DNA of 64,000 nucleotides, taken from NCBI GenBank assembly GCA_030390025.1, contig CM059431.1, positions 120,096,001-120,160,000 on the forward strand, in the 5' to 3' direction. Positions 3,393-64,000 of this stretch are shown one piece after another. The stretch is from Squalus acanthias (Eukaryota). Position numbers and translations under genes: made by a program. Within the stretch, counting starts at the first letter, position 1, and the number at the start of each line of letters is the position of its first letter. The notes beneath the pieces are model-generated. The model ran no database searches. It was not told where the DNA came from and saw nothing but the letters and a program-made list of their open reading frames with translations.

Positions 3393-3612
3393 AATTGAGA
3401 GGTCGCACAACACCAGGTTATAGTCCAACAGTTTTATTTGAAATCACAAGCTTTCGGAGCTATCGATTGCCCCTTCCTCAGGTGAAGAGGAAGGGGCAAT
3501 CGATAGCTCCGAAAGCTTGTGATTTCAAATAAAACTGTTGGACTATAACCTGGTGTTGTGCGACCTCTCAATTTTGTCCACCCCAGTCCAACACCGGCAT
3601 CTCCGCATCATG
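3393..3612. mobile_element. Short fold-back Penelope-like pLTR insertion
   Basis: ~90-bp perfect inverted arms around ~3484; TSD AACTTTAAATGA at 3381-3392 and 3613-3624; same terminal sequence as the GIY-YIG element at 23564-25686. Confidence 0.88.
3445..3484 (-). ncRNA. Minimal type I hammerhead ribozyme motif in Penelope pLTR
   Basis: Minus strand reads CAC-CUGAGGA-aggggc..gcucc-GAAA-gcuu-gug: conserved core boxes, helix II, palindromic AAGCUU. Confidence 0.7.
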
Positions 3613-3895
3613 AACTTTAAATGAGGCCAGGGCCTCAAAATCACTGGGTCACAGAAATATTTATGCTGGTTTCTATACCGATCTTGCAGACTGGTACTTA
3701 TGTCCAAATTTCCTGCCAATCTAATTAGTACATGCTGGAAGGTAAATATCTGCGTAAATAAGCGAAAATAAGCATAAACAATTGGGGCCAGGGGAAGGTG
3801 TGGAATTGATGCAAAAGGAATTTAGTCCTTTGTATAAAATTAAAGTTTGAAAGCATTAAACCATCATTTACGCACATTGAAGATACTGGGACAAT

Positions 3896-4638
3896 GGCCC
3901 AGAAATTGATCTCGCTCTGTTCCCGCGGGGGTAAGCCTTCCCCGCGATGTCTCACCTCGCTTGTGCTTTTTCAGATCCAGCTCGCACGAACTTGATGTTC
4001 CAGACATCAGCTGTGCTGGGCTTGCGTATCCCAGCGGCGTAGTGAATTTGTGCGAGCTGTGGGATCACGTGACTCAGTTAGAGCCAATGGCAGCACACCA
4101 TCTTCCATTCATAAGTTTCATAGACCTGATGTGAAATCTATGAATCTTACACCCCCCCAAAATAACAGCTAAACCTCAATTAAATTTAAAAAAAAACCAT
4201 CACATTAATAAAATAAGTATAGTTAATTAAATTAACCATTTTAAATAAAAAATTAAATTTTTGAAAAAATTTAAAATCTTTTAAAAAGTTATAAAAATAA
4301 ACTTACCTGTCTTTAAAGTCTCTAAAAAAGATATACCTGTAAAAAAAAATTCAAAAAAATACTTAAATCACTACTTACCTTCTTAAAAGCGGGTCTTACT
4401 CCTCCTTTTTACATTTCCAAAATCTTCCCTACTTACCTGCGCGTCCAAAGCATGAAGTGCACAGCGTGCGCGCAGCCTGTAGCGCGCACGCGATGCACCC
4501 AGGACCCGCCCCCTTTTCAGAAGAGCAATTGCCGGTTTTCAGCGCATGCGCAGGGCATGCAGAAAACCGGCAATTGGAGTGGCAATACGCGAGAGTACGC
4601 AGTGCGTACTCTCGCGTCCTGGGATCAATTTTCGGCCC
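3896..4638. mobile_element. PIF/Harbinger-type MITE, family A
   Basis: Imperfect TIRs GGCCCAGAAATTGATC / GATCAATTTTCGGCCC; homologous along its length to 13608-14368. Confidence 0.8.
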
Positions 4639-4643
4639 ATTGT

Positions 4644-4870
4644 TCCAATTTCCACCCCTCCCTTGCCTTTGCATGGTCCATCTCCGACTCTTCCCTTCTC
4701 TTCTTTGACTTCTCTATCTTCATTTCTGGGGGATAGGCTAATGACCAATATTTACTATAAGCCCACTAACTCCCACAGCTACCTTGATTACACTTCCTCC
4801 CGCCCCACTTTCTGTAAGGACTCTATTCCATTCTCCCAGTTTCTCCGCCTCCGTCGCATCTGTTCTGAGG
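4644..4870 (+). mobile_element. Penelope-like RT C-terminal fragment
   Basis: Translates to NFHPSL..IYYKPTNSHSYLDYTSS..KDSIPFSQFLRLRRICS, typical of Penelope RT. Confidence 0.8.
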
Positions 4871-6030
4871 AAGCTGCAAGGGGATATTGATAAGATGGTG
4901 GAATGGACAAAAAAATGATAGATGGAATTCTATGTCAGTAAGTGTGAGGTCGTAGGTTTTGCTAAAATAAATAAAAGTAATAATTATACTTTGAATGGAG
5001 GGTTCAGGTTCAGATGGCATTAAAAGCAGCACCTCAAATGGATAAGGCCATAAAAAAAGGAATTGGAGTACTAGGTTTTATGGCAAGAGGTATAGAACAT
5101 AAAAGTCTTAAAGGGGGAAAAAGTGAGTTGCGCCCCCATTGGGGCACTAACTTCGCCGGAGCGCTACTTTTAGCGCCCTGAAAAAGTTAGCGTCTCCGTG
5201 GCCGAAATTCATCAGTAGCATCCCAAGAGGGAAGCGGTGTGCTACTGGAAGCACCCCACCTCCCTCTTGGGGCGCTGCGAGTGAATATCATGGCGCTACG
5301 TGCCGAAGTAGTGCAAGCCTTCCTCCTCTACTTAAAGGGGAGGAGCCTTGCGCAGCGCGACCCGGGGCCCAGCTGGGCCACCAGAGATCGGAGTGCCAGC
5401 AAAAGAGCCCGGCACTCAAGAGAAGTGCCGAGTTCAAGGAGCGCAGCCGGCACACCATGGGGGGGCAAGTCAGGAGGCCGGGGACGGCAACGGGGGCAGG
5501 TGCTGGCAGGCAGCCAGCAACAAAAATGGCCACCCTGCACCTCGCCTTTACTTAGTGCCGCCCCAGCTTCAGGTAGGCCCCCCTGACCCCGTCGGACATA
5601 GCGTCCGGTGGTAAGTCAGGGGGCGCTACCGAAGATCGCGGCCGGGGCGCGAGTGGGGCGCTGCGCACGATGATGACGTCATCGCCGGCGACGCAGCGCC
5701 ATGGGGCGCTAGTGGTTACCGCCACCGCTAACCTCCCGCTGAATTTCACGGGAGGCATTGGCGGAACCTCTTAGGGCGCTAATGGGAGGCGCAAAGCAAC
5801 CGAATTTTTAGGCCAAGATGTAATGGCAAATCTCTATAAAACTTTCGTAAGACCACAGCTGGAGTACTGTGAGCAGTTTTAGGCTCCACACTATTGAAAG
5901 GATGTTAAAGCAATAGGGATGGTACAGTGCAGAGTCACTAGGACATCGCTATGGTATGAGGAAATACAATACAATAAAAGTGTTAAAAAACTGGAGCTGT
6001 TTTCATCAGAACAGAGTGAATTGAAACAGA
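4870..6030 (+). mobile_element. Degraded CR1 RT fragment interrupted by a MITE
   Basis: Remnants such as GIEHKS|KDVM..LYKTFVRPQLEYC join across the 5113-5814 insertion. Confidence 0.7.
5113..5814. mobile_element. GC-rich Harbinger-derived MITE
   Basis: Starts GGGGGAAAAA and ends AATTTTTAGGCC; the right end resembles the reverse complement of the left end of the Harbinger at 17613. Confidence 0.7.
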
Positions 6031-6182
6031 GGTGGAGAAATTCAGCTTCAGTGTGGCACCAAACGGGCGGTAGTGAATTGGCCATCCATTATATCAATGG
6101 AAAGGAAAATTGGATGGGGTGTATAACGGGCAGTCGATTTGTACTGCCCATTTTGTGCCCCCGTCAAAGTTGAATTTCACCT
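6030..6182. mobile_element. Small palindromic MITE
   Basis: GAAATTCAGCTT..AAGTTGAATTTC ends and internal inverted similarity. Confidence 0.5.
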
Positions 6183-8984
6183 TCATGGTAGCTGGCTGGG
6201 CACTTGGGATTAAGACTACTGCTCATGTGGAAGATAAACTGGTTGGGCCAAATGGACTGTAGCTGTAGTGTAATTTCTATGTAATTCTATGTAATAAGGA
6301 AAGAGTCTTGATCCAGAACTGAACGTTTCACTTCCTCAGCTCTAATGTGGCGCTTTCTGGAGACACACACTGGTGCATTGTGCCATGCAATGCTCCACAT
6401 CCTAATATCAGATTGGCCGGGACGTTCCTTAGAGCTGCTTCCAACTCCTCCGTCATTGCTTCGTTGGAAATGTGGTGGAAAGCCCACCAGAAGAGCAGGA
6501 GCAGTTCTGTGGAATTTCCCGGCCAATGTTATGGTATGGAGCGTAATTGCTATCAGTTCATAGCAATCATCTTGATAGTTACCTCTGGATAAAAAAAAAT
6601 AGTTTAAAACTATTCCCCTCATTAGCTCCAGAGTACATATTAAATTAATAAACACATGGGCGTGATCTTGATTTTGTAATCTCATTTTGGGATTCCAAAT
6701 TGGTTATAAACTAATTAAGCTTTATAGTATCTGCCCCATTAAAGGTTACTGCCTTGTAATCACTATCAAGAATGAATTTCTCTCTGCAGCCTAGAAATGA
6801 CTGTGATATTAGCATGCAAATAGTTAACTCATTTGTATGAGATTCATTTTTGTCCATTATTTTAACTGAGATATTAATCCATTTATTACCTGTTAAAATA
6901 ACAGACAAAACAATATCTTATGAATGTAGTAAGTGTTCATACTCTAATATCGTAGAGTCATACAGCACAGAAGAAGGCCATTCAGCCCATCGTGCTCTTT
7001 GAAAGAGCTATCCAATTAGTCCCACTCTCCTGCACTTTTTCCATAGCCCAAAAACCTTTAAACAGTAATTTCCAGGCCTGCATGTGTTGTTGAGAAGAAA
7101 GTAGCATTGCATGCACTGGAACATATTTTTTTTAATTAAATGAATGGCATTTCATGGTATGTTAAGTGACAGTGCTGAAGCAGAACATGGAGTTTCTAAT
7201 AATAAAAAACGATTAGAAGCATTAGCTTCTTCATATTCTGTACTTCTAAACTTTAATTCAGTCAGGCAGAAACAAAACAAAAAAAATCTTGGACAGATTT
7301 TATTAGAGATTGAATTATCATGCTAGTGCTCTTATTCATAATTATTTAGAGCACTAACATGATAAAGTTGGCTTTGGGTCAACTATTCAATGTAAGACAA
7401 GAGCAAAATAGGCAGATGCCAGAAATCTGAAATAAAAACAGAAAATGCTGGAAATACTCAGCAGGTCAGGCAGCATCTGTGGAGAAACAAAGTGCACGAT
7501 TCAGTTTGATTGTCTTTCATCAGATCAATGTAAGAGATTGACAGCTTTCAAAGAGAAATAGAAATGAAGAGAGTTCACTTTAGAATGGCAGATGATATAT
7601 ATTAATGTAAATCAATGCATATTGATGCAGGAAACATGAAACCTATGAAGATGATGGATGGCTCTGTATTTGGAATGGTGAAAAGTCCAAAAATTTGGAA
7701 TGATTATTGACAATTCATTGAAAGTATAAAATTAATGTAGACTTGTTATCAAAAAATCTGATTGAGTATTGGGTTGTAACTTGATTATACATTGAAAGTG
7801 GTTATTTTACTTCTATGTAACTCATTCGTGAAACTATATTTGGAATGTTTGGATCATGGAAATCTCAGGTTTGACTAAAAACCTAGTTAAAGGTCAAGGA
7901 TTAGTAAAGGGCATTTGGCCCATTAAGGTTGTCCATCTGATACTCCAACTGATCAATCCTAGCATCCATCCAAGCACCGCACATGCTTATGCTGACGATC
8001 CATGCAGGAAATGATCAGAAAAAAATATTTAAATTGTTTTTTACAACATTGAACAGGAAGGAGCAAGAGTTCTCCTCCTGACTCCACAAGAATACTGCAA
8101 GCCTCCCACCGCTCCCCACCCCCTACCCACCCCCATCCCGCCGAGGACCTACCCATGGGCTCTGCCAGCGTCCCAACTGGCCGACATTCCTGAGGCTGAA
8201 GTCCAGCAAGCTGAATCGGGATGCCTGTTTAACGTCCACAGCTTGCCAGTCAACTTCAACTGAGGCTGGGGCCTCAAAATTGCAGTGACCTCTTTGCCAC
8301 CGGAACGGCCGCCCAAAATAACTCGCGTCATTTCTTTCCCCCAGAGACGTTGACCAATGATCCAGAGAATGCGAGTTAAAATTACACCATCGGAGGTTGA
8401 GAATTTGAATTTAATTTTAAAAATATGGATAAAAATGCTGGTATCAGTAAAAGTGACTATGAAGCTGTTGGATTGTCATAAAACCCAACAGGTTCATTAA
8501 AGTCCTATAGGGAAGAAAACCTGCCACCCTTCCCTGATCTGGCCTATATGTGACTCTGGTCCCTCACTCTGAAAGGGAATTTTTCTTTTACTTACCTTTT
8601 ATACTACCCCGACCTTGCACATAGAGGTCCCATTGGCCCAGTTCCAGTCACAAATCGATTACATTCGATTACACTGCTCAATTGCGTAGATTCGCGGGAG
8701 ATTTCACGTTCAGGCTTATGCTAATGAGTTTGTGTGGAAACTTGGACACAATTTCTCATCAGCCAAACGAGAGCAGCATCGCACGAATTTTGGGCATAAT
8801 TTGCCGATTGTGCCACTAGCGGAAACACAAGGTCAAGGAGTTTAGCCTCAGTGGGAATTCAGCCTGAGAGAAAGTTCAGTGTTGAGGTGCTAATGGGCAG
8901 GTGTCTATAATTACTACTTGTGTGACGTCAGTAAGCAAAGCTTGATTCTGGAGACAGTTTGGTGCTAGTGGGAATCCAGGAGAA

Positions 8985-9225
8985 ACTTCTTTACCCAGAG
9001 AGTGATTAGAATGTGGAACTTGCTACCACAAGGAGTAGTTGAGGTGAATAGCATAGATGCATTTAAAGGGAAGCTAGATAAGTACATGAATGAGAAAGGA
9101 ATAGAATGTTACACTGATAGGTTTAGATGAAGTAGGGTTGGAGGAGGCTCGTGTGGAGCATAAACACTGGCATAGACCAGTTGGGCTGAATGGCCTGTTT
9201 CTGTGCTGTAAATTTTATGTAATAC
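8985..9225 (+). mobile_element. CR1 3' end fragment
   Basis: NFFTQRVIRMWNLLPQ..FKGKLDKY, then the CR1 3'UTR with GGGCTGAATGGCCTG and short-repeat tail. Confidence 0.8.
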
Positions 9226-9469
9226 TATCTACATTTTTAAATTAGACACAGAGGGATGGCAGTGCAGAGAACCCTCATGATATTTGTGGGATGTGCCAAG
9301 TGGAACATCATGGATCCTCAGGATATCAGGGACAGCATATTAAAAAATAAATAGTAAGAAAATATTATCAGAAGAGAAAAGGAGAGAAAAATGCTTTGAG
9401 GTAGTGAGGGATAAAAACACTGCTATAGAAGGGGAAAGGGATATCAAGAAAATTAAACCTGAACACCAG

Positions 9470-10287
9470 GGGGGGGGCGATTTTCTCAGCCCCGAGGAGG
9501 CGGGTATGGAGGCGGGACTGCCGGGAAAATGGCAGAATTTGGGGGCGGGTGGCAAACCCGCCCCCAACCCGCCTCCATGCCATCTTCCCAGGAGGCGGGT
9601 TGCCGTCCCGCGCCGTGTCCCGTCTCCTTGGAGGCGGGAAGGGACTAAAGCCAATTAACTGCCTGTAGTTAACAGGCAGAATATAGGATTATCCCGTTTT
9701 TGCCCTCACAAGTGCGGGTTTCCTGAAGGCTCCAAAACACGCCAGGGTCACCGAGGCGAGTAGTGGGTCTACGGGGGTCGGGGGGATGCAAAAGGATGGT
9801 GTGACGATAAGTGATAGGTGCAAGAGTGTAGAGGTGAGTATCTGAGGTAAGTCCTAAGTGTTTTTAAAAGTGTATTACCTTTGTTTCTTCCTGCAGGCTT
9901 CAGTCGGTTTCTATACGGAGAGTCTCGCACCTCCGTGTTGCAGATGAGAGATGGCCGTTGCATTCTCAGATGCAACAAACATCTCAATTCTGTAAAAGAA
10001 ATAAGGTTGATGAGGTCTTATATGCAAGACCTCATCAAACTGCAGAGATTGTCACTGTTTGACAGCTTCACAGAGCTGTCAAACGATGACAATTCATCTG
10101 TCAAAAATTTTTGACAGATGACACATCATACGTTGACATGCTCTGCAACCGGCTTTCCCTTAATTGGCACGCTAAGGCCAATCAAGGGAAAATAGCGTGG
10201 GTTGGCCACAACTCGATGGAGGTGGGACTGAAACCCGACAAGCAGCAGTTCCGCCTCCAATGCACCTCCATTCACAAAACCGCCCCC
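9470..10287. mobile_element. Harbinger-type MITE, family B
   Basis: GGGGGCGATTTT / AAAACCGCCCCC TIRs with CAG TSD; homologous to 50553-51389. Confidence 0.8.
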
Positions 10288-10329
10288 CAGGAAAAAAAAT
10301 AAGCATCAATATTCTAAAAAATTGGTGTC

Positions 10330-11270
10330 TGAATTCGTGGTATGGATGTGACTACAGCAAGTATTGAAAACAAAATTGGAGAGTTAGAAGCATGAATAAC
10401 TATGGAGTAACATGCATAGTAGCTATAACAGAGATATCGTTTAAGATTGGACAAGACTGAGAATTTACTATTTCTGGTTAGAACATTTTCAGGACAAATC
10501 GGAAAGAATAGGGTGGGGTGGGGTGGAGTGGGGTGGGATGGGGTGGGGTGGCAGTGTCAGTAAAGGGTTCCACCACAAAGCTAGAATGTAAGCATGTCCT
10601 AGCGGGCTGTATAAGATAAAATCCGTAGGAATAGACTTAAGGAATAGGAAGGGAAATGGTGCAATTCTTGAAGCGCGGTACAGGCCACTAAGTAGTAGAG
10701 ATGAGATATAGCGGAAGATCTCCAGGCAGTGCAGAGACATAAGAGAACAATAGGGCAATAATGTATGACAATTTTAACTATCCTAAGAGAGACTAGAATA
10801 AACCTAATTCATGTGATCAAAGTAGGGAAAGCTTCCTAGATCAGTATGGTCCTGAATTTCCATCGGGGTTGCCCCAATCTCCAACAGTTTTCAACCTTTT
10901 ACGTTATTTCCCCAGAAGTAATGGGAGGAGATTGCATTAACTTCCATGGAAATTCAAAGCCTATGTTTCTCATCCAACAAGGAAAGAAGCATTGCTTGAT
11001 TTAATTCTGGGAAATGAAGTGGAGCAAAGAACTGATGTAAGAGAACAATAGGAAAATAATCACTACAGCATAATTAGGTTCAATCTAAGGAAAGAAAAGG
11101 ATAATGAAGGGTGCAGGACTGGAAACAGGCAAAGTTCAATGAGTTAAGAAGAGATCTGGTCCAAATTAACCTTGCAGAAAAGTTAGCAAATGGATCAGCA
11201 ATGGGAAAGCTTCAAAATATGAAGTGGATAGAGTATAAAATATATTTATTCATATGGGGTGCAAAATGGT
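10330..11270 (+). mobile_element. Degraded CR1 ORF2 (APE endonuclease region)
   Basis: Remnants of VAITE, FNYP and LLDLILGNE motifs, with many stops. Confidence 0.65.
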
Positions 11271-13589
11271 GCATGAATATATAGGGGTAGGAATTTGTCT
11301 TGGACAGTAGCATAAAACAGGCCTTTCCAATGGAAATAAAAATCAGGAGAGATATAGAATGGGCTGCCGAGTGCCGACTCGCTATCACCCGTTTTACACT
11401 ATTGCTAGAGCTACCCCAATGGCTCTAAACATTTTCAGTCATTCGTGTTCCACTAATATCTGTCTTCCCTACACATTCCATTGATGATCATGTTATTTTG
11501 ATTGTGAGATTAGGAATGGTACAACATGCTGCCTTCATGAAAGATCATGAAGAGGTTAAAAAAAACTGATGTTAAAATTTCTACAACAAACCTGTTAAGC
11601 CGACCTTTCAGAGGCCCAATTTCTTCCCTGATCCTTGTGATGAGCATTAATGAAAAAATGATCCTCTTTCATGATCACAATGATTTGTTTTCTATTCTTT
11701 TATCCTTTAATTTTCATTTCAGTAATCCTTATCTACCATGAAAACTTATCTTCATTTAATTTTTCTTTTCCCTTAACATTCTTAAATCTTTTATAGTTTT
11801 CTTTACTGTCGATCTAGCTTAGTTTGCTTTCCTTATTCCTCTCAGGAACATATAGTTGGTCTGATGAGTAACTGGAGCACAGTTACTGCTGTGCTAATCT
11901 ATGAGTGCAGTCAAATGTATTATGCATCTAGTCAATTACTAGTTGAAGAAAAGCAAACTGTTAGAGCCCTTGAAGACTCAGCATATGCAGTACTTAGTTA
12001 ATGCAGACCAGTACATCCTGGATTTAACTGTGTTCCATTTGTCAATCTCTTCTGGGACAGCAGTTGGGTTCTACAATTGGCCTTCATGCCCATGGGCTAG
12101 GAAAGAAAAAAAATCAGCCAGGATTCCTGTTTCTGATCAGCATCCAGTGACTCTTGATGAAAAATGTACACATGTGGGTATCAAATAAAAACAGAATCAA
12201 ACGTGACTGCAATGCCCTGCAGGGTACAACAGTATGCCAACTCTCACTAACTAGGTTCACACCTGAAGAATTAATCTAATAAAGACTGTTTTTCCAGAGC
12301 TAGGCAAAGATTAAAGCAATTTGTGATATGTTAAAACAATCATGAACACAGTTGCTATGTAAACCAATCCATAAAATCTTGCACAACAAGGGGGTGACTT
12401 GAACAAACTCACGTACCACACAACTTATCAGGAGCCTCAAGCCGCAGCTGCTTGTTGACTTGGTCGGCTCGAGTTAACTCATTCCTATCCAGCCACAATT
12501 CATTTGGTAAACTAACTGGGGCAAACTTTCTTGGCACTGTTCCTGCTAGGCTCCCGTAACTTCGTCGGAAATGCAACGGGAATCGTGTCGTCAACAGGGT
12601 TTCCACTGCACTTCCAGCAAGGTTATGGCGGTGAAGCGTGAGCAGCACCAAGGAAACTCCAAACCAAAATAGCTAAGAAAAAAGGTCTAATCTCTGGAGT
12701 CTTTTCTGATGTTTTCTAGAATACTGCTATTTCCACGCAGCCATTTCTCTCCCAATGCACTCTGATTCCTCCAGGCATTGAAACTGCTCGAATGAAGCCA
12801 GACACTTCATCTTATAACTTTTGACATTATTTTTCTTATAAATATTAAATATTTTAATTGTATTAAATCACTGTGTCTAAAACTTTCCATGAACTAGATC
12901 ACTGATAATTTCAAAATATTTAATATAGCATCAATCTACGTGTGCTGAAGCAGTTACTGCATTAAAAGCAGTCCCTGAGTATCTGAATAAATTAATTATT
13001 GTCCCTATTGTAGCCATTATTACTGGATAATTGAAGGCACACATGAATATATTACATTACTTTAATTATCTTGATTTGTTAATTAAATTCAAATTTATGA
13101 TACAAATCCACCTTTTTAAGTCGGATGTGTTTCAGAAAATTCCCCACAGCCACATGGGGGTAAGAATGGGTCGGTTTGGGTCGGGTGGGAAGTAAATATT
13201 TTTTAAATTTCACACCTGACCCCAAATTACCTCCAACCCCTTCATATTTTAACAGAGGCAGGTAGTCAAAGGGCCGGCAACCAATCCGCTCTCAGCAAGC
13301 AGGTTGCAAATTGAAATCTTTTAAGGAGGTTGTGCGCTTCCATTTTAACAGATTTTTTATTTTTATCTAATGTCAGCCAGGTTTCCTGATGCTTGGGAAT
13401 CCCGCCAGGTAAAAGGAGGATAGAAAGACCGGATCCGTAAGGTACGTGCATTTACAGCACTGCTTGTGGGCCAGGAGGAACAGGACTGTTCCCTCAAGGC
13501 CCAACAAGCTTACTTCTGTATTCCCCTGCGATCTCCGTTTCCCCCCACCACATTCTCCAACTCCCCTCCACCCCCCACCACCCCACAAC

Positions 13590-60039: not shown

Positions 60040-60172
60040 CTTTTTATTTATTTGTTCATGGGATGTGGACTTTACTGGTAAGGCCAGCATTTATTGCCCA
60101 TCCCTAATTGCACTTGAGAAGGTGGTGGTGAACCACCTTCTTGAACCACTGCAGTCCATGTGGTGAAGGTAC
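60040..60172 (-). mobile_element. LINE 3' tail, truncated by the LTR insertion
   Basis: Same sequence as ~26448-26568 (GGCCAGCATTTATTGCCCATCCCTAATTG..GAGAAGGTGGTGGTG). Confidence 0.65.
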
Positions 60173-61985
60173 TGTAAGTGGTTTTCTCGGACGCACCGAA
60201 AACACACCTCTTACTGCAAGTTCTGGACGATAGGGATTATAAGGACAGATCAGACTCGGACACCCATTTGAGCTCAACCGTATTGTGTTTAATAGGATTA
60301 ACAATAACACTCCTAACAGTACAAAACAATACAACCCTGGCTTGTCCAACAAGCCATACTGTGCTAAATTATGTAGAATTCGCAATATATCGCGATTTTA
60401 TAAATAAGGAGAAAAACACATAGTTTCGTTCAAACAGCTTTTATTTCAGCAGAATGCTGTCAGGTTTTCAAAGTGGACACAAGCAGCTTGTAAAATGGCC
60501 GCCGCACCTTGTGGCAGAACAGTCTAGACTTTTCAACAGGCAGACAAGATGGCGTTCCAGTAAACATTTGTGCAAGATCGATTAGGACTCAGCACATTTA
60601 AGATAATACACGAGACATCATGGTTTCACAGTATACACATAAATACTGAAATCGGTCTCCCAGGTGCGAATGAGGGCTGTTGTACCAAGTAATCAAGAAC
60701 CCATCCAAAGACATTAATATGTAAAATCCCAACGACTCTACGATGAGAGAGCCGTTAGCGGGTAGTTACAGAAAACACTTGGAAGCCCCAAAACCCCTCC
60801 AGGGAGAACACCGACCGATTAAACAATGGGAGAAATATTAACAGGTACTCAGACAGTTACGAGTAGCCCCGAAACCCATTAAAACGAAGATCACCCTATA
60901 CAAGACATTTGAGCGCCAAACCCTAACAAAAGAAAAGACATTAAGGTTGGGCGGGAAACGGAAGATTTTGCACTATAATTGCAAGCTCCAAACCGTCCAT
61001 CTTTCTCTTGACTCTTGACTCTTATTCGGTTGACTCTTATCCTCGTGGCTGCTCCTGTGCTCTTGACTCGCCGTCTTGTTCCTGCTTGCCTCGTGTCTCT
61101 TTTCAAAAGACTGTTGAACTTTACGATCCGCTCGAATCTACCTCGTGTCGTGTCGCGAAGACCTGTGTAGAACTGGGCTCTGAAGCCTTGAAACGGGCGC
61201 ACCATTCCGATAAGTCGGTCAACGGTGTTGGAACCAAAGGCCCGAAATGAGATGAGATGAGATGAGATGAGATGAGAAGAGAAGACAGCAATACATCTCG
61301 TCACGGTCAGTAAACCCCGACCGCGCCCGAAATAAGTGAACTTTGTAGGTTTTGATCGGGAATCCAAGGTCAGCACCGATCTTCATGACAGCAGACGTTC
61401 CAGCCTGCTAGCCGGAGCAGAAACGAGTAAACAAGTGGGGCCAGGAGACCCCCTGATCGACACGTGGGCGCTGCGGTGAAAAACATCCGATCAGAGTTTT
61501 CGGAATTCTCCGAGTTATCACGAGTGGTGAGCATGAGTCTCGAATCCTACGAATCTAGCTTAGGACAGATATTGATAGGGGAGGGTTTTTAGTATTAAGG
61601 ATAATTGTAATGTGTGCCCCCATTTACGATGTGTCGTTCGTTCCTCGTTTCCCCGAAATTAGTTACATAACTGCGTGTAAGATTGTACTGTCATTAATCT
61701 GTGCTTATGACATGTATTTCGTAATCTTAAGTACTGTGCAATAAAGATTTTCCATTTTGTACCATTCAACCGAGTCTACCTGAGTTTCATCTCCATTACT
61801 GCTCTCGCATCTAAGTCCAGTGTCTAGAACCGTAAGGGCGAGTGGGTCGAACCACTCACAGGTGTGTCTAGTGCTCCCAGACTGGCTGGAGACCAGAACA
61901 GGCAACAAGGCCTAAACCGGCACTAGCACCCGGGCTGCACAGAGCCACACGAATCTCACAGGCTGAGAGACAAAAAACCCTTACA
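60173..61985 (+). mobile_element. 5' LTR (~1.81 kb) of an LTR retroelement
   Basis: TGTAAG...CTTACA inverted termini; AATAAA at 61740; followed after 5 nt by a PBS; homologous solo LTR at 48477-50140. Confidence 0.88.
61248..61275. repeat. (TGAGA)n microsatellite inside the LTR
   Basis: About five consecutive TGAGA units. Confidence 0.9.
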
Positions 61986-61989
61986 GAAA

Positions 61990-63795
61990 ATGGCGACCGC
62001 GGCAGGACACTGGCAGCGAGAGGGTAGTGTGTTAGATTTTGGTGTGAATGTACGAAATGTTATGCAGGAAAAGATAGCAGATTATGTGTTCAGAAAGGTA
62101 AATCTAACTAAGAAATGGATAAGTGACCTGTTAGCGGATAAGAGTCCACTAGAGGCAGCCGAGAGGTGGACAGATAGTAAGGAACATAAAAAGACAGTCG
62201 AGAAAGCAGTCTGGTTAATGTGTTACAAAAGGCAGGTCCAGATTTCAAACCAGGTCATTACAGCGCAAACAGCTCGGATCAGGCATTTGGAGGAGGAAAT
62301 GGATGAGAAAGTCTCTGGAGGGGAGTTGCTCATCAGGAATTTAAGTGCGCTGCACCGAGAACGCCAGGAAATCACCAGTCACCACAAAGCAAAAATAGAT
62401 TACCTCGAGTGTCAGGTCACTGAGGCAAAGTTAAGTGAGGGCAGACTAAAGGAATGATGTGCCCGCCAAGCTGCCCAAATAAGAGCCCAGGAAGAGAGCT
62501 TAACGGGGGTTAGGGCGGCATATAAGATGGCCCTTGAGGATAAATTTCAGGGGGCCGATCATAGCGCCTGCCAAAAGGAGATAGAGCACCTTAAAAGGGC
62601 CGTGAACAAAGCGCACGGCATGGTGTGCCTTATCAGTCCGTCAGCACACCAGCCGCTAGTAGATGAGGAGTTTCAGAAATTCCCACCAAGTAAAGCAAAG
62701 GAAGTATTAGCCACTACGCCCTCCGCGCCACCCAGCTATTCGGAAACCTGGGTAAGGGAGGAAGTAGTAGAAGAAACGAAAGAGCCCACTGAGGGAGAAG
62801 TGGAAAAGGGACCGTTGTGTCCAGTTACGGGTATAAAAAGGGGCCCAAACGGGAACGGTGGGGAACCAGGGGATCTCCTGAACCAGCTTGTGTTGCCTCA
62901 CAGCTCACACCAGCTGAGAGTTATGATAAATCACGTACGGAAGCTGACCGAGTCAGACGACCCTTCCGTACATTTCAGAGAAGTTGAGCAAACCGCAGCC
63001 ATTAACGGCTGCGATGATGGGGAAACAGCAAAAATGCTGTTATTTTCGTTAGGCAGTTCAATCCTTCAGTGTCTCTCGGACGAGAGCAAGAGGGGAACCA
63101 AGACATATGAGGCATTAAAAAATGAGGTCCTAGAAGTGTTGGGGACGGACGATGAAGGTCCGTTTCCTAGAGTGGGACAGACAGTGCAGATGGAGGGAGA
63201 ACCCCCGAAGGTTTTTGCCGACAGGCTGTGGCCAGTATATCAGCGCAGCTGTCCAGGTGCGCCAGAGCGCGACGCTGTGGACGGCGTCGGTTTAACTCAT
63301 TGGCTCAGGTGTATAGTAGCCAACAGTTTGCCAGCCGTCAGAGAGCAGGCAAAAGCGTGGTTTGATCCCACTGACCCCAACATTACGGAAGAGTCGGTCT
63401 TAAATCGACTCACGGTAGGATACCGCAATATAAGGGGTATGGGAACACGTCCCCTTAAGGGAAAAGTACATGAGGTACGACCCGCAGCCCCGGCTCAAAG
63501 GGAGTGGCATCAGGAGGGTAACCGCGCCCCGCAGGCAAGTAATGCTTGTTACGGGTGTGGGAGGACAGGGCACTGGCGCAAGAACTGCAGGAACCCTTGG
63601 AAGGATTCCAGGGATAAAAATCCCGCAGCCCGAGCCCAGATGCCTGTCTCGGTTAGGGAAGCTAGTGCACCCACCCGTCCCGACGACCTCGAAACAGTGT
63701 TGGGAGCCATGCGCAACTTCATGAGTGCACATGGAAAAGTGGCGGTTGCTACCGGCCCCGTAGGTGCCGCAGGCCCGTCTAACCATACCCAATGA
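61990..63795 (+). pseudogene. gag: gag with CCHC zinc knuckle; one premature TGA at 62455-62457
   Basis: ORFs 61990-62457 and 62527-63795 are in the same frame; coiled-coil-like N-region, PSAPPSY late-domain-like motif, capsid-like QMEGEPPKVFADRL, CYGCGRTGHWRKNC. Confidence 0.85.
61991..62008 (+). promoter_or_regulatory. Primer-binding site, tRNA-Arg(TCG)
   Basis: TGGCGACCGCGGCAGGAC is the complement of the 3' end I recall for vertebrate tRNA-Arg-TCG (GTCCTGCCGCGGTCG-CCA); located directly after the LTR. Confidence 0.85.
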
Positions 63796-64000
63796 CTAGA
63801 GCCCACGCAGCCTGCCTACCTGTGTCCTTTTAAAAGACACGCACAGGAGGGCGTCGCCGGTGAGGAGGCCAGGTTAAAAGAGCAGGCCTTGCGGGAGGAG
63901 AACGCCCGCTTAATAGGGAAAATAGATGGGCTGGAAGGGCAGCTTAGAGAGCAGGCCCTGCGGGAGGAGAACGGCCGCTTAATGGGAAAGTTAGACGTGC
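63796..64000 (+). CDS. In-frame open continuation after the gag stop (putative readthrough product), partial
   Basis: 68 codons without a stop up to the window end, directly after TGA-CTAG. Confidence 0.55.

Follow-up and report, generated by a model that had tools for sequence, protein, structure and literature searches.

A pol-deleted copy of an abundant endogenous retrovirus family in Squalus acanthias, with a predicted leaky UGA-CUAG stop at the end of gag

A stretch of 64,000 nucleotides from Squalus acanthias (assembly GCA_030390025.1, contig CM059431.1, positions 120,096,001 to 120,160,000 of the forward strand; 'the window' below) ends inside a retrovirus-like element whose gag gene stops at a UGA followed directly by CUAG, and whose reading frame stays open behind that stop. 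The locus raises the question of whether such an element makes its downstream protein by reading through the stop codon, and of what that protein is. An original prediction, made from the window alone, had proposed opal readthrough into the downstream protein. The window holds only the 5′ part of the provirus, which is 9251 bp (9.25 kb) long and runs from 60372 to window-equivalent 69622; positions above 64000 are the window numbering carried on into the 16 kb downstream of the window end on the same contig, and the features within the window, among them the 5′ long terminal repeat (LTR), lie on the + strand. The locus is a pol-deleted copy of an abundant endogenous retrovirus (ERV) family. 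Our reading, to which we give a probability of roughly 0.78, is that Gag-Pro-Pol is predicted to arise in full-length members of the family when the UGA is occasionally read through, and that the locus is a non-autonomous, pol-deleted copy of this young and abundant family. The proposal of readthrough is thus upheld as a prediction for the family, on the basis of an in-frame pol, selection and a constant stop context, but not for the window copy, which has no pol to express.

The gag gene comprises 601 codons (61990..63792), and the window reads CAA TGA CTA G at its end exactly as first described, with the stop codon at 63793-63795 and the stop plus context, which we predict to be leaky, at 63793..63799. 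The gag frame does continue past the stop to the window end, and beyond it to window-equivalent 64899, where it closes after 368 codons in all. By our own arithmetic, the chance of finding CTAG behind a stop is 1/256, that of finding the same frame 1/3, and that of a 368-codon open frame about 2e-8, assuming uniform composition. TGA-CTAG was found to be kept among the genomic copies, both in aligned copies of the deletion form (30/30) and in full-length copies (12/12). In the former the context was constant although the three codons directly upstream vary between sub-lineages, and in all 12 of the latter the junction read CAA TGA CTA GAG. The same sequence was present in 32/32 exact-flank matches and in 100/100 of the matches listed with at most one mismatch. 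An unsorted 100 of the 1361 genome-wide exact-flank matches gave 91 TGACTAG, 4 TGACTAA, 3 TGACTGG, 1 TAACTAG and 1 TAACTAA; the nine departures are single or double transitions, and all of them retain a stop. A sense codon at this position, which would have told against readthrough, was not seen among these 100.

A search with 36 bases around the gag stop, in which mismatches were tolerated, returned 912 places and revealed a larger sub-family differing by one base, from which 12 loci were drawn. Relative to the window copy, all 12 had an additional 3615 bases, placed between positions 63827 and 64061, and in all 12 pro-pol lay directly behind TGA-CTAG in the gag frame, which bears out the expectation of a downstream protein in that frame. 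The frame was open for 1508 codons in three loci, 1495 in two and 1460 in one, and broke earlier in the remaining six. Closure of the frame beyond the window had been named as a result that would speak against readthrough; it does close in the window copy, at 64899, but it is open over as many as 1508 codons in the full-length relatives. Pfam recognised in the pol product the families RVP (residues 17-69), RVT_1 (245-407, E 1e-35), RT_RNaseH_2/RT_RNaseH, the tether (470-602), RNase_H PF00075 (650-792), Integrase_H2C2 (874-932), rve (950-1046) and a Tf2-type SH3 (1181-1223), behind which there is a tail of about 285 residues that is acidic, proline-rich and disordered. Protease (PR), reverse transcriptase (RT), tether, RNase H and integrase (IN), as looked for in an ERV, were therefore all present in the full-length relatives and not in the window copy, in whose internal region of about 6 kb no PR, RT or IN was found. 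The original prediction had named these enzymes and env as what to look for downstream; env is at the locus itself, and the enzymes are in its relatives.

Selection was assessed by comparing the ratio of nonsynonymous to synonymous changes (N:S) among variants shared by several copies with that among singletons. For the pol enzymes the ratios were 20:61 (shared) and 274:153 (singleton; p 5e-11), and a shifted control frame gave no significant difference, which shows strong purifying selection on the enzyme-coding part of pol in the gag frame. The first Met of pol is codon 24, and no stop lies between it and the gag stop. Since the protease match starts at codon 17, a complete protease cannot begin at an internal AUG, and we infer that Pol must be read on from gag. 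Taken together, the common frame of gag and pol, a protease that starts before the first Met, the selection on pol and the constant stop context argue for readthrough. As in gamma- and epsilonretroviruses, a few percent of the ribosomes would then pass the UGA, and the resulting Gag-Pol fusion would bring PR, RT and IN into particles.

At the locus itself, the last part that is common with the full-length elements before the deletion breakpoint consists of the first 11 pro-pol codons (63796..63827). These are followed by a 233-nt insert (63828..64000 within the window, and on to 64060) of coiled-coil repeat codons in the gag/pol frame, for which no source was found within the full-length element; pol codons 12 to about 1216 (3.6 kb) have in this way been replaced in frame by 78 codons. 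What results is a remnant open reading frame (ORF) of 368 codons (63796-64899), made of 11 pol codons, the 78 foreign coiled-coil codons and the C-terminal tail of pol (window-equivalent 64061-64899; ~280 codons), the last accounting for its C-terminal three quarters. The protein behind the stop is here a remnant without PR, RT or IN, and not pol; it matched no Pfam family at the cut-off, and a word-based protein search gave no homologue. The same 9.25-kb layout of gag, ORF and env without pol was found in 29/29 nearest copies and in 10 copies that were fetched in full. The deletion form thus has the make-up of a non-autonomous element, in that it lacks PR, RT and IN, has LTR, primer binding site (PBS), gag and env in common with an autonomous relative, and occupies independent insertion sites. 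Perfect 4-bp target-site duplications were present in 8/8 other complete copies, and as each copy has its own, the deletion occurred once and the form then spread through reverse transcription and integration. Full-length relatives would presumably provide in trans the Pol that copies it, whereas Gag and Env would be its own, and its leaky stop would yield a minor fusion of Gag to the coiled-coil segment and the disordered Pol tail.

Several points weigh against this reading. The copies differ by 1-6%, and because they are young their agreement at TGA-CTAG is weak evidence of constraint. The window copy itself carries an in-frame TGA inside gag (62455..62457), overlooked in the original prediction, which is a disabling mutation private to this copy; position 62455 is a C in the contigs of all four runs, these being short pieces only, and the part of gag that was fetched was open in 11/24 other copies. 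No amino-acid constraint was detected on the remnant ORF (N:S 70:24 shared vs 116:42 singleton), nor on the pol tail (44:21 vs 283:116), and the fusion product of the window copy may be functionless. Mobilisation in trans we infer from the common LTR, PBS and gag only. Finally, no stable structure was predicted in the ~120 nt behind the stop, where folding was no better than that of shuffled sequences (z-score of the minimum free energy -0.88 for the deletion form and +1.16 for the full-length one, by nested folding, which is blind to pseudoknots). The bases after the UGA are CUAGAGCC, and the pattern of a UAG followed by a purine-rich spacer and then by a pseudoknot was not found, pseudoknots not being predictable with the method used. 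As there is no stable nested fold behind the stop, the short context is the likeliest signal, and so the bare UGA-CUA(G), rather than a downstream pseudoknot, is likely to be what would make this stop leaky.

UGA-CUAG is a context in which vertebrate AQP4 and OPRL1 are read through. The hexanucleotide UGACUA has been called 'type II', and alphaviruses and Triatovirus, but no retrovirus, are given as its users in the available part of a review from 2026 (PMC13517186). Retroviral readthrough appears in the same part of that review as UAG-GGA, together with three UGA cases in other contexts, namely SSSV (the swim bladder sarcoma virus of salmon; UGAAGA), a zebrafish ERV (ZFERV; UGACGA) and an ERV of Rhinella marina (UGAAGU) (PMC13517186). 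The family described here resembles these three in having an aquatic host and a UGA at the gag-pol junction, but none of their contexts is CUA(G); the comparison is one of junctions. The original prediction had regarded a UGA junction as atypical. In view of these three fish and frog retroviruses, and of a second ERV of the same genome described below, this is correct only in part. With the type II users the family has the same hexa- or heptanucleotide in common, which works there largely without a long structure; the messages concerned are RNA-virus replicase or cellular mRNAs, unlike the retroviral gag-pol junction seen here.

Readthrough of the stop between gag and pro-pol is described for the gamma- and epsilonretroviruses in the available part of the same review, with Moloney murine leukaemia virus (MoMLV) and WDSV (walleye dermal sarcoma virus) as examples (PMC13517186). 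As in these viruses, there is in our family a single in-frame stop between the nucleocapsid (NC) knuckle and the protease DTG, just in front of or inside the N-terminus of the protease, and Pol is predicted to be made only as a Gag fusion. They differ in the signal: those viruses have UAG-GGA, a spacer of 8 nt and an H-type pseudoknot, and the present family has UGA-CUAG. Gag-pol readthrough is in other words an ordinary retroviral strategy, and it is the UGA-CUAG signal that is unusual. Its use would tie retroviral recoding to the signal of alphaviruses and of some vertebrate genes, and the junction offers a compact natural cassette for testing UGA-CUAG in a basal vertebrate.

The env ORF of the locus has 847 codons, 783 of them from the first Met (65206) to its end (window-equivalent 65206-67554). 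Its product has a signal-like N-terminus, an RQRR motif, heptad helices and a C-terminal transmembrane segment. A full HMMER scan gave 48 relatives, and those with names came from sharks, a skate and frogs. An AlphaFold model built from an alignment of 34 sequences reached a predicted local distance difference test score (pLDDT) of 80-93 over residues 236-650, compared with a pLDDT of only 32 for a model from the single sequence. When this model was compared with the PDB by Foldseek, the best 50 entries shown were all F proteins of paramyxo- and pneumoviruses, with F of human parainfluenza virus 3 at the top (E 2e-11), and a second structural aligner gave Nipah F a Z of 12.2 over 293 aligned residues, with none of the 50 entries shown below a Z of 10. 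The predicted viral structures that matched best were glycoproteins of mononegavirus-like arthropod viruses, and the model also matched baculovirus F and the epsilonretroviral Env proteins of walleye epidermal hyperplasia virus 1 (WEHV-1; 8e-11) and WDSV (3e-7). In the model, then, the env product folds like a paramyxovirus F protein. At the level of sequence the Fusion_gly family PF00523 gave no match to env at E<=1 or to 12 of its relatives at E<=0.1, and a PF00523 scan of the shark's own genome gave none under a strict first filter, which makes the latter weak evidence. Env had no Pfam match at the cut-off, and a PDB sequence search with env alone returned 0 hits; a profile of env picked out foamy virus gp130 among the PDB sequences weakly (E 0.044 and 0.21), and foamy Env was not among the best 50 rows of three structure searches with the env model. 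The N:S ratios were 22:73 (shared) and 93:96 (singleton; p 2e-5) in a set that includes full-length copies, so that env is under purifying selection. Sequence features, fold model and selection all agree with a cleaved class I fusion glycoprotein.

An F-like Env has been reported for lokiretroviruses (PMC7947760) and for foamy viruses (PMC11468914), in the parts of these papers available to us. Since such a fold fits lokiretroviruses as well as Envs of foamy and epsilon type, it does not decide the lineage of the family. Among solved structures, RT matched the murine leukaemia virus (MLV) type with 208 bits, foamy virus with 180, Ty3 with 140 and human immunodeficiency virus (HIV) with about 55, and the best integrase match was that of prototype foamy virus (PFV; 2e-33). 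Pol is 32-36% identical to that of two other retrovirus-like families of the same genome and carries the dual layout of retroviruses, with a tether (RT_RNaseH) and a separate RNase_H. Lokiretroviruses are defined by an RT that forms the sister branch of all Retroviridae. Like them, as far as the available text describes them (PMC7947760), the family has LTR-bounded gag, pol and env, a tether plus RNase H and an F-related Env, the last at the level of fold; unlike them it has no PF00523 sequence match in env, and the hosts named in that text do not include cartilaginous fishes (PMC7947760). With foamy viruses and foamy-like ERVs it has in common long LTRs, a large genome, shark and frog hosts, an integrase match of PFV type and the F-like Env fold given in the accessible part of PMC11468914, but a CCHC Gag, a tRNA-Arg PBS and a pol in frame with gag set it apart, foamy viruses being defined by a Pol expressed separately from Gag and by a Gag that lacks a Cys-His box. 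From these comparisons an epsilon-like or other class I position is tentatively the first choice, although it falls short of an even chance; a foamy-like position is possible but doubtful, one outside all of these groups is unlikely, and a lokiretrovirus-like one more unlikely still.

The Ty3 Gag-Pol gave the single best sequence match among solved structures (242 bits), and this, together with the Integrase_H2C2 and Tf2-type SH3 calls in pol, might be taken to mean that the family is a Ty3/Gypsy-type retrotransposon (Metaviridae) that has captured an env, and not a retrovirus lineage. The score is, however, the sum of RT and IN, and over RT alone the order is the one given above, with Ty3 behind both the MLV type and foamy virus. 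A gamma-like ERV of the same genome yields the same Pfam calls, the tether with a separate RNase_H is retroviral and contrasts with the single RNase H of Ty3/Gypsy elements, and the purifying selection on env also speaks against this origin. We regard a Metaviridae origin as very improbable.

A different objection concerns the junction. Pol might be made apart from Gag in the manner of foamy viruses, from a spliced mRNA of its own, in which case the TGA would be a true terminator and the common frame and the CTAG would be coincidental. The match of the env profile to foamy gp130 (at its better E of 0.044) and the PFV integrase match would suit such an arrangement, a Met is present at pol codon 24, and the occurrence of env relatives in sharks and frogs is the host pattern of a foamy-like clade as given in the available part of its publication (PMC5512871). 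However, the protease match begins upstream of this Met, the only candidate, with no stop in between; the common frame would have to have arisen by the 1/3 chance noted above, the stop sits in a known readthrough hexanucleotide, and neither the CCHC knuckle of Gag nor the tRNA-Arg PBS is foamy-like. Separate expression of Pol thus seems quite improbable, and readthrough of the UGA is the reading that we keep for the full-length members.

The leaky stop and the 368-codon frame of the deletion form could simply be leftovers. The frame would then be open only through the chance that the deletion preserved it and through the youth of the sub-family, and the product would be inert; we would put this at somewhat less than an even bet. 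Such a reading is in keeping with the absence of constraint on the amino acids of both the remnant ORF and the homologous Pol tail, with the failure to find a family or homologue for it, and with a per-codon decay of the ORF among copies that is like that of gag (16/24 vs 11/24 open), as under neutral decay after insertion. Against it, all four lineage-shared indels in the remnant ORF (42, 30, 3 and 39 nt) are multiples of 3, compared with 6/24 of the singletons (Fisher p about 0.01, our own calculation), and shared stop-creating variants are scarcer in frame (1) than in the other two frames (9 and 8), although these counts are low and two of the indels, of 39 and 42 nt, fall within coding repeats. 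Two 1-nt indels that at first counted as shared lie in G runs, with a single copy carrying both, and were treated as recurrent slippage. The remnant reading frame therefore seems to have been kept. The non-coding, indel-rich spacer that follows it (window-equivalent 64900-65205) varies in length among copies far more than its surroundings and has many shared indels whose lengths are not divisible by 3, in sharp contrast to the ORFs on both sides.

Copy numbers were taken from 32-mers spanning the breakpoint, with at most 3 mismatches. This gave 1309 matches genome-wide for the deletion form and 2199 for the full-length form; a first-look figure of 2489 candidates was not used as a copy number. 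If most of these are whole elements of 9.25 and ~12.6 kb, respectively, the family would occupy ~40 Mb, which is about 1% of the assembly (3.71 Gb). The LTR pairs of nine deletion copies differed by 0.15-1.24%, which corresponds roughly to an insertion age of ~3-28 million years at a slow substitution rate, that assumed for a chimaera (PMC4422223), and to ten times less at a mammalian rate. Junction matches at a regular spacing of 7.7-12.4 kb or 21-29 kb on one strand (C3716:68009-92915; C1:143657918-143673390; C6:92303239-92374698) suggest that there are tandem or segmentally duplicated copies beside the dispersed insertions.

In having an internal pol deletion with LTRs and PBS kept, and a high copy number beside an autonomous relative, the deletion form resembles Moloney murine sarcoma virus (MoMSV) in its relation to MLV. 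ETn and MusD form another such pair of a defective element and its helper. The present family is unlike helper-dependent defective proviruses in that gag and env have been kept under purifying selection and the leaky stop and the open in-frame remnant have also been kept. A more far-reaching proposal, which we hold to be speculative and unlikely as a whole, is that this retrovirus lineage of cartilaginous fishes sets its ratio of Gag to Gag-Pol by a bare UGA-CUAG without a pseudoknot, that the pol-less satellite (>1300 copies) keeps leaky stop and frame because a Gag fusion is needed to co-assemble with or capture the Gag-Pol of the helper, and that the family (~3500 copies, ~1% of the genome) spread with a working F-type env. 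If true, the last of these would run against the rule that high-copy ERVs are env-less. The family is in any case a rare example of a very high-copy ERV with an env under purifying selection, and it is accompanied by a large sub-family that has lost pol but retained gag and env. It lends itself to the questions of how helper-dependent proviruses spread and of whether the loss of env is needed for genomic 'superspreading'. Its F-fold Env adds a branch from cartilaginous fishes and frogs to the F-like fusion proteins of retroviruses.

The ends of the provirus had been placed differently. The 5′ LTR is 1614 bp long (60372..61985), with the ends TGTAG...CTTACA, as delimited by its match to the 3′ LTR (window-equivalent 68009-69622; 98.76% identity, 20 mismatches) and by the point at which homology to other copies starts. 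The LTR of 1.8 kb starting at 60173 that was first described begins 199 bp too far to the left: the 3′ LTR aligns only from position 200 of that unit, homology begins at 60371/60372 in 10/10 other copies, and the stretch 60100-60173 is part of a different repeat. A short interspersed repeat (GGCCAGCATTTATTGCCCATCCCTAATTGC...) at 60040-60173 ends exactly at the start claimed earlier, and similar copies of it lie close to 3/10 of the other loci. The target-site duplication is ATTA, with its 5′ copy at 60368..60371 and its 3′ copy behind the 3′ LTR at window-equivalent 69623-69626. A purine tract ends at window-equivalent 68008, directly before the 3′ LTR, and the LTR contains a short (GAGAT)n-like microsatellite (61249-61285). 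Paired TG..CA LTRs with a short duplication, and a PBS complementary to a host tRNA, are what is expected of an endogenous retrovirus.

The PBS (TGGCGACCGCGGCAGGAC, 61991..62008) lies 5 nt behind the LTR and was recognised by its tRNA complementarity. As originally assigned, it is an 18-nt tRNA-Arg site: in reverse complement it is identical (18/18) to the 3′ end of tRNA-Arg(TCG), made up of the final 15 bases of a gene for this tRNA in the same genome and the CCA. Genes for this priming tRNA form large tandem arrays with a spacing of ~1.6 kb at C26:38.99-42.2 Mb, and the 22-base 3′ half of the tRNA occurs 422 times genome-wide, most of the places listed being on C26. The first ATG of the gag frame (61990-61992) overlaps the PBS by two bases, and a leader between PBS and gag is absent. 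Any packaging signal or splice donor would therefore have to be in the LTR or in gag. Another possibility is that gag begins further on, with the ATG at 62063.

The gag product has an N-terminal coiled coil, a PPSY motif (62728-62739), a part resembling capsid (CA) and a single CCHC knuckle, CYGCGRTGHWRKNC, at 63544-63591. The last had been noted before and is confirmed, with an E of 0.0016 and 18.9 bits against Pfam zf-CCHC, below the cut-off of 20.8, and an E of 0.04 against NC chains of HIV. The central CA-like part matched the gag of a further ERV in this genome (E 2e-5), and a word-based search with gag among longer proteins gave no match. N:S was 77:80 for shared variants and 259:72 for singletons (p 2e-10), and gag of the deletion form is thus under purifying selection.

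A search for a helper by its integrase family led first to two unrelated young families, the full-length form itself having come from the larger junction sub-family. A second ERV family, at C2:57189000-57206999 (element at ~3473-11440 of that stretch), is young and unrelated to the one at the locus, with identical 514-bp LTRs, and dozens of places show the integrase score that it has. Its gag, of 450 codons, contains two zinc knuckles and is followed by the junction CAG TGA CAG and an in-frame pol of 1185 codons. The family also has an env of 490 codons with a gamma-type CX6CC motif, and is another case of a gag-UGA-pol junction in the same genome, in a different context. A third LTR family (C4:144064000-, C20:13194000-) is very abundant and has 516-bp LTRs that are 99.6-100% identical. 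It has no env and a single fused gag-pol ORF of up to 1665 codons, yet shows the retroviral layout of tether plus RNase_H, and dozens of its integrase matches have identical scores and open frames of 1187 codons.

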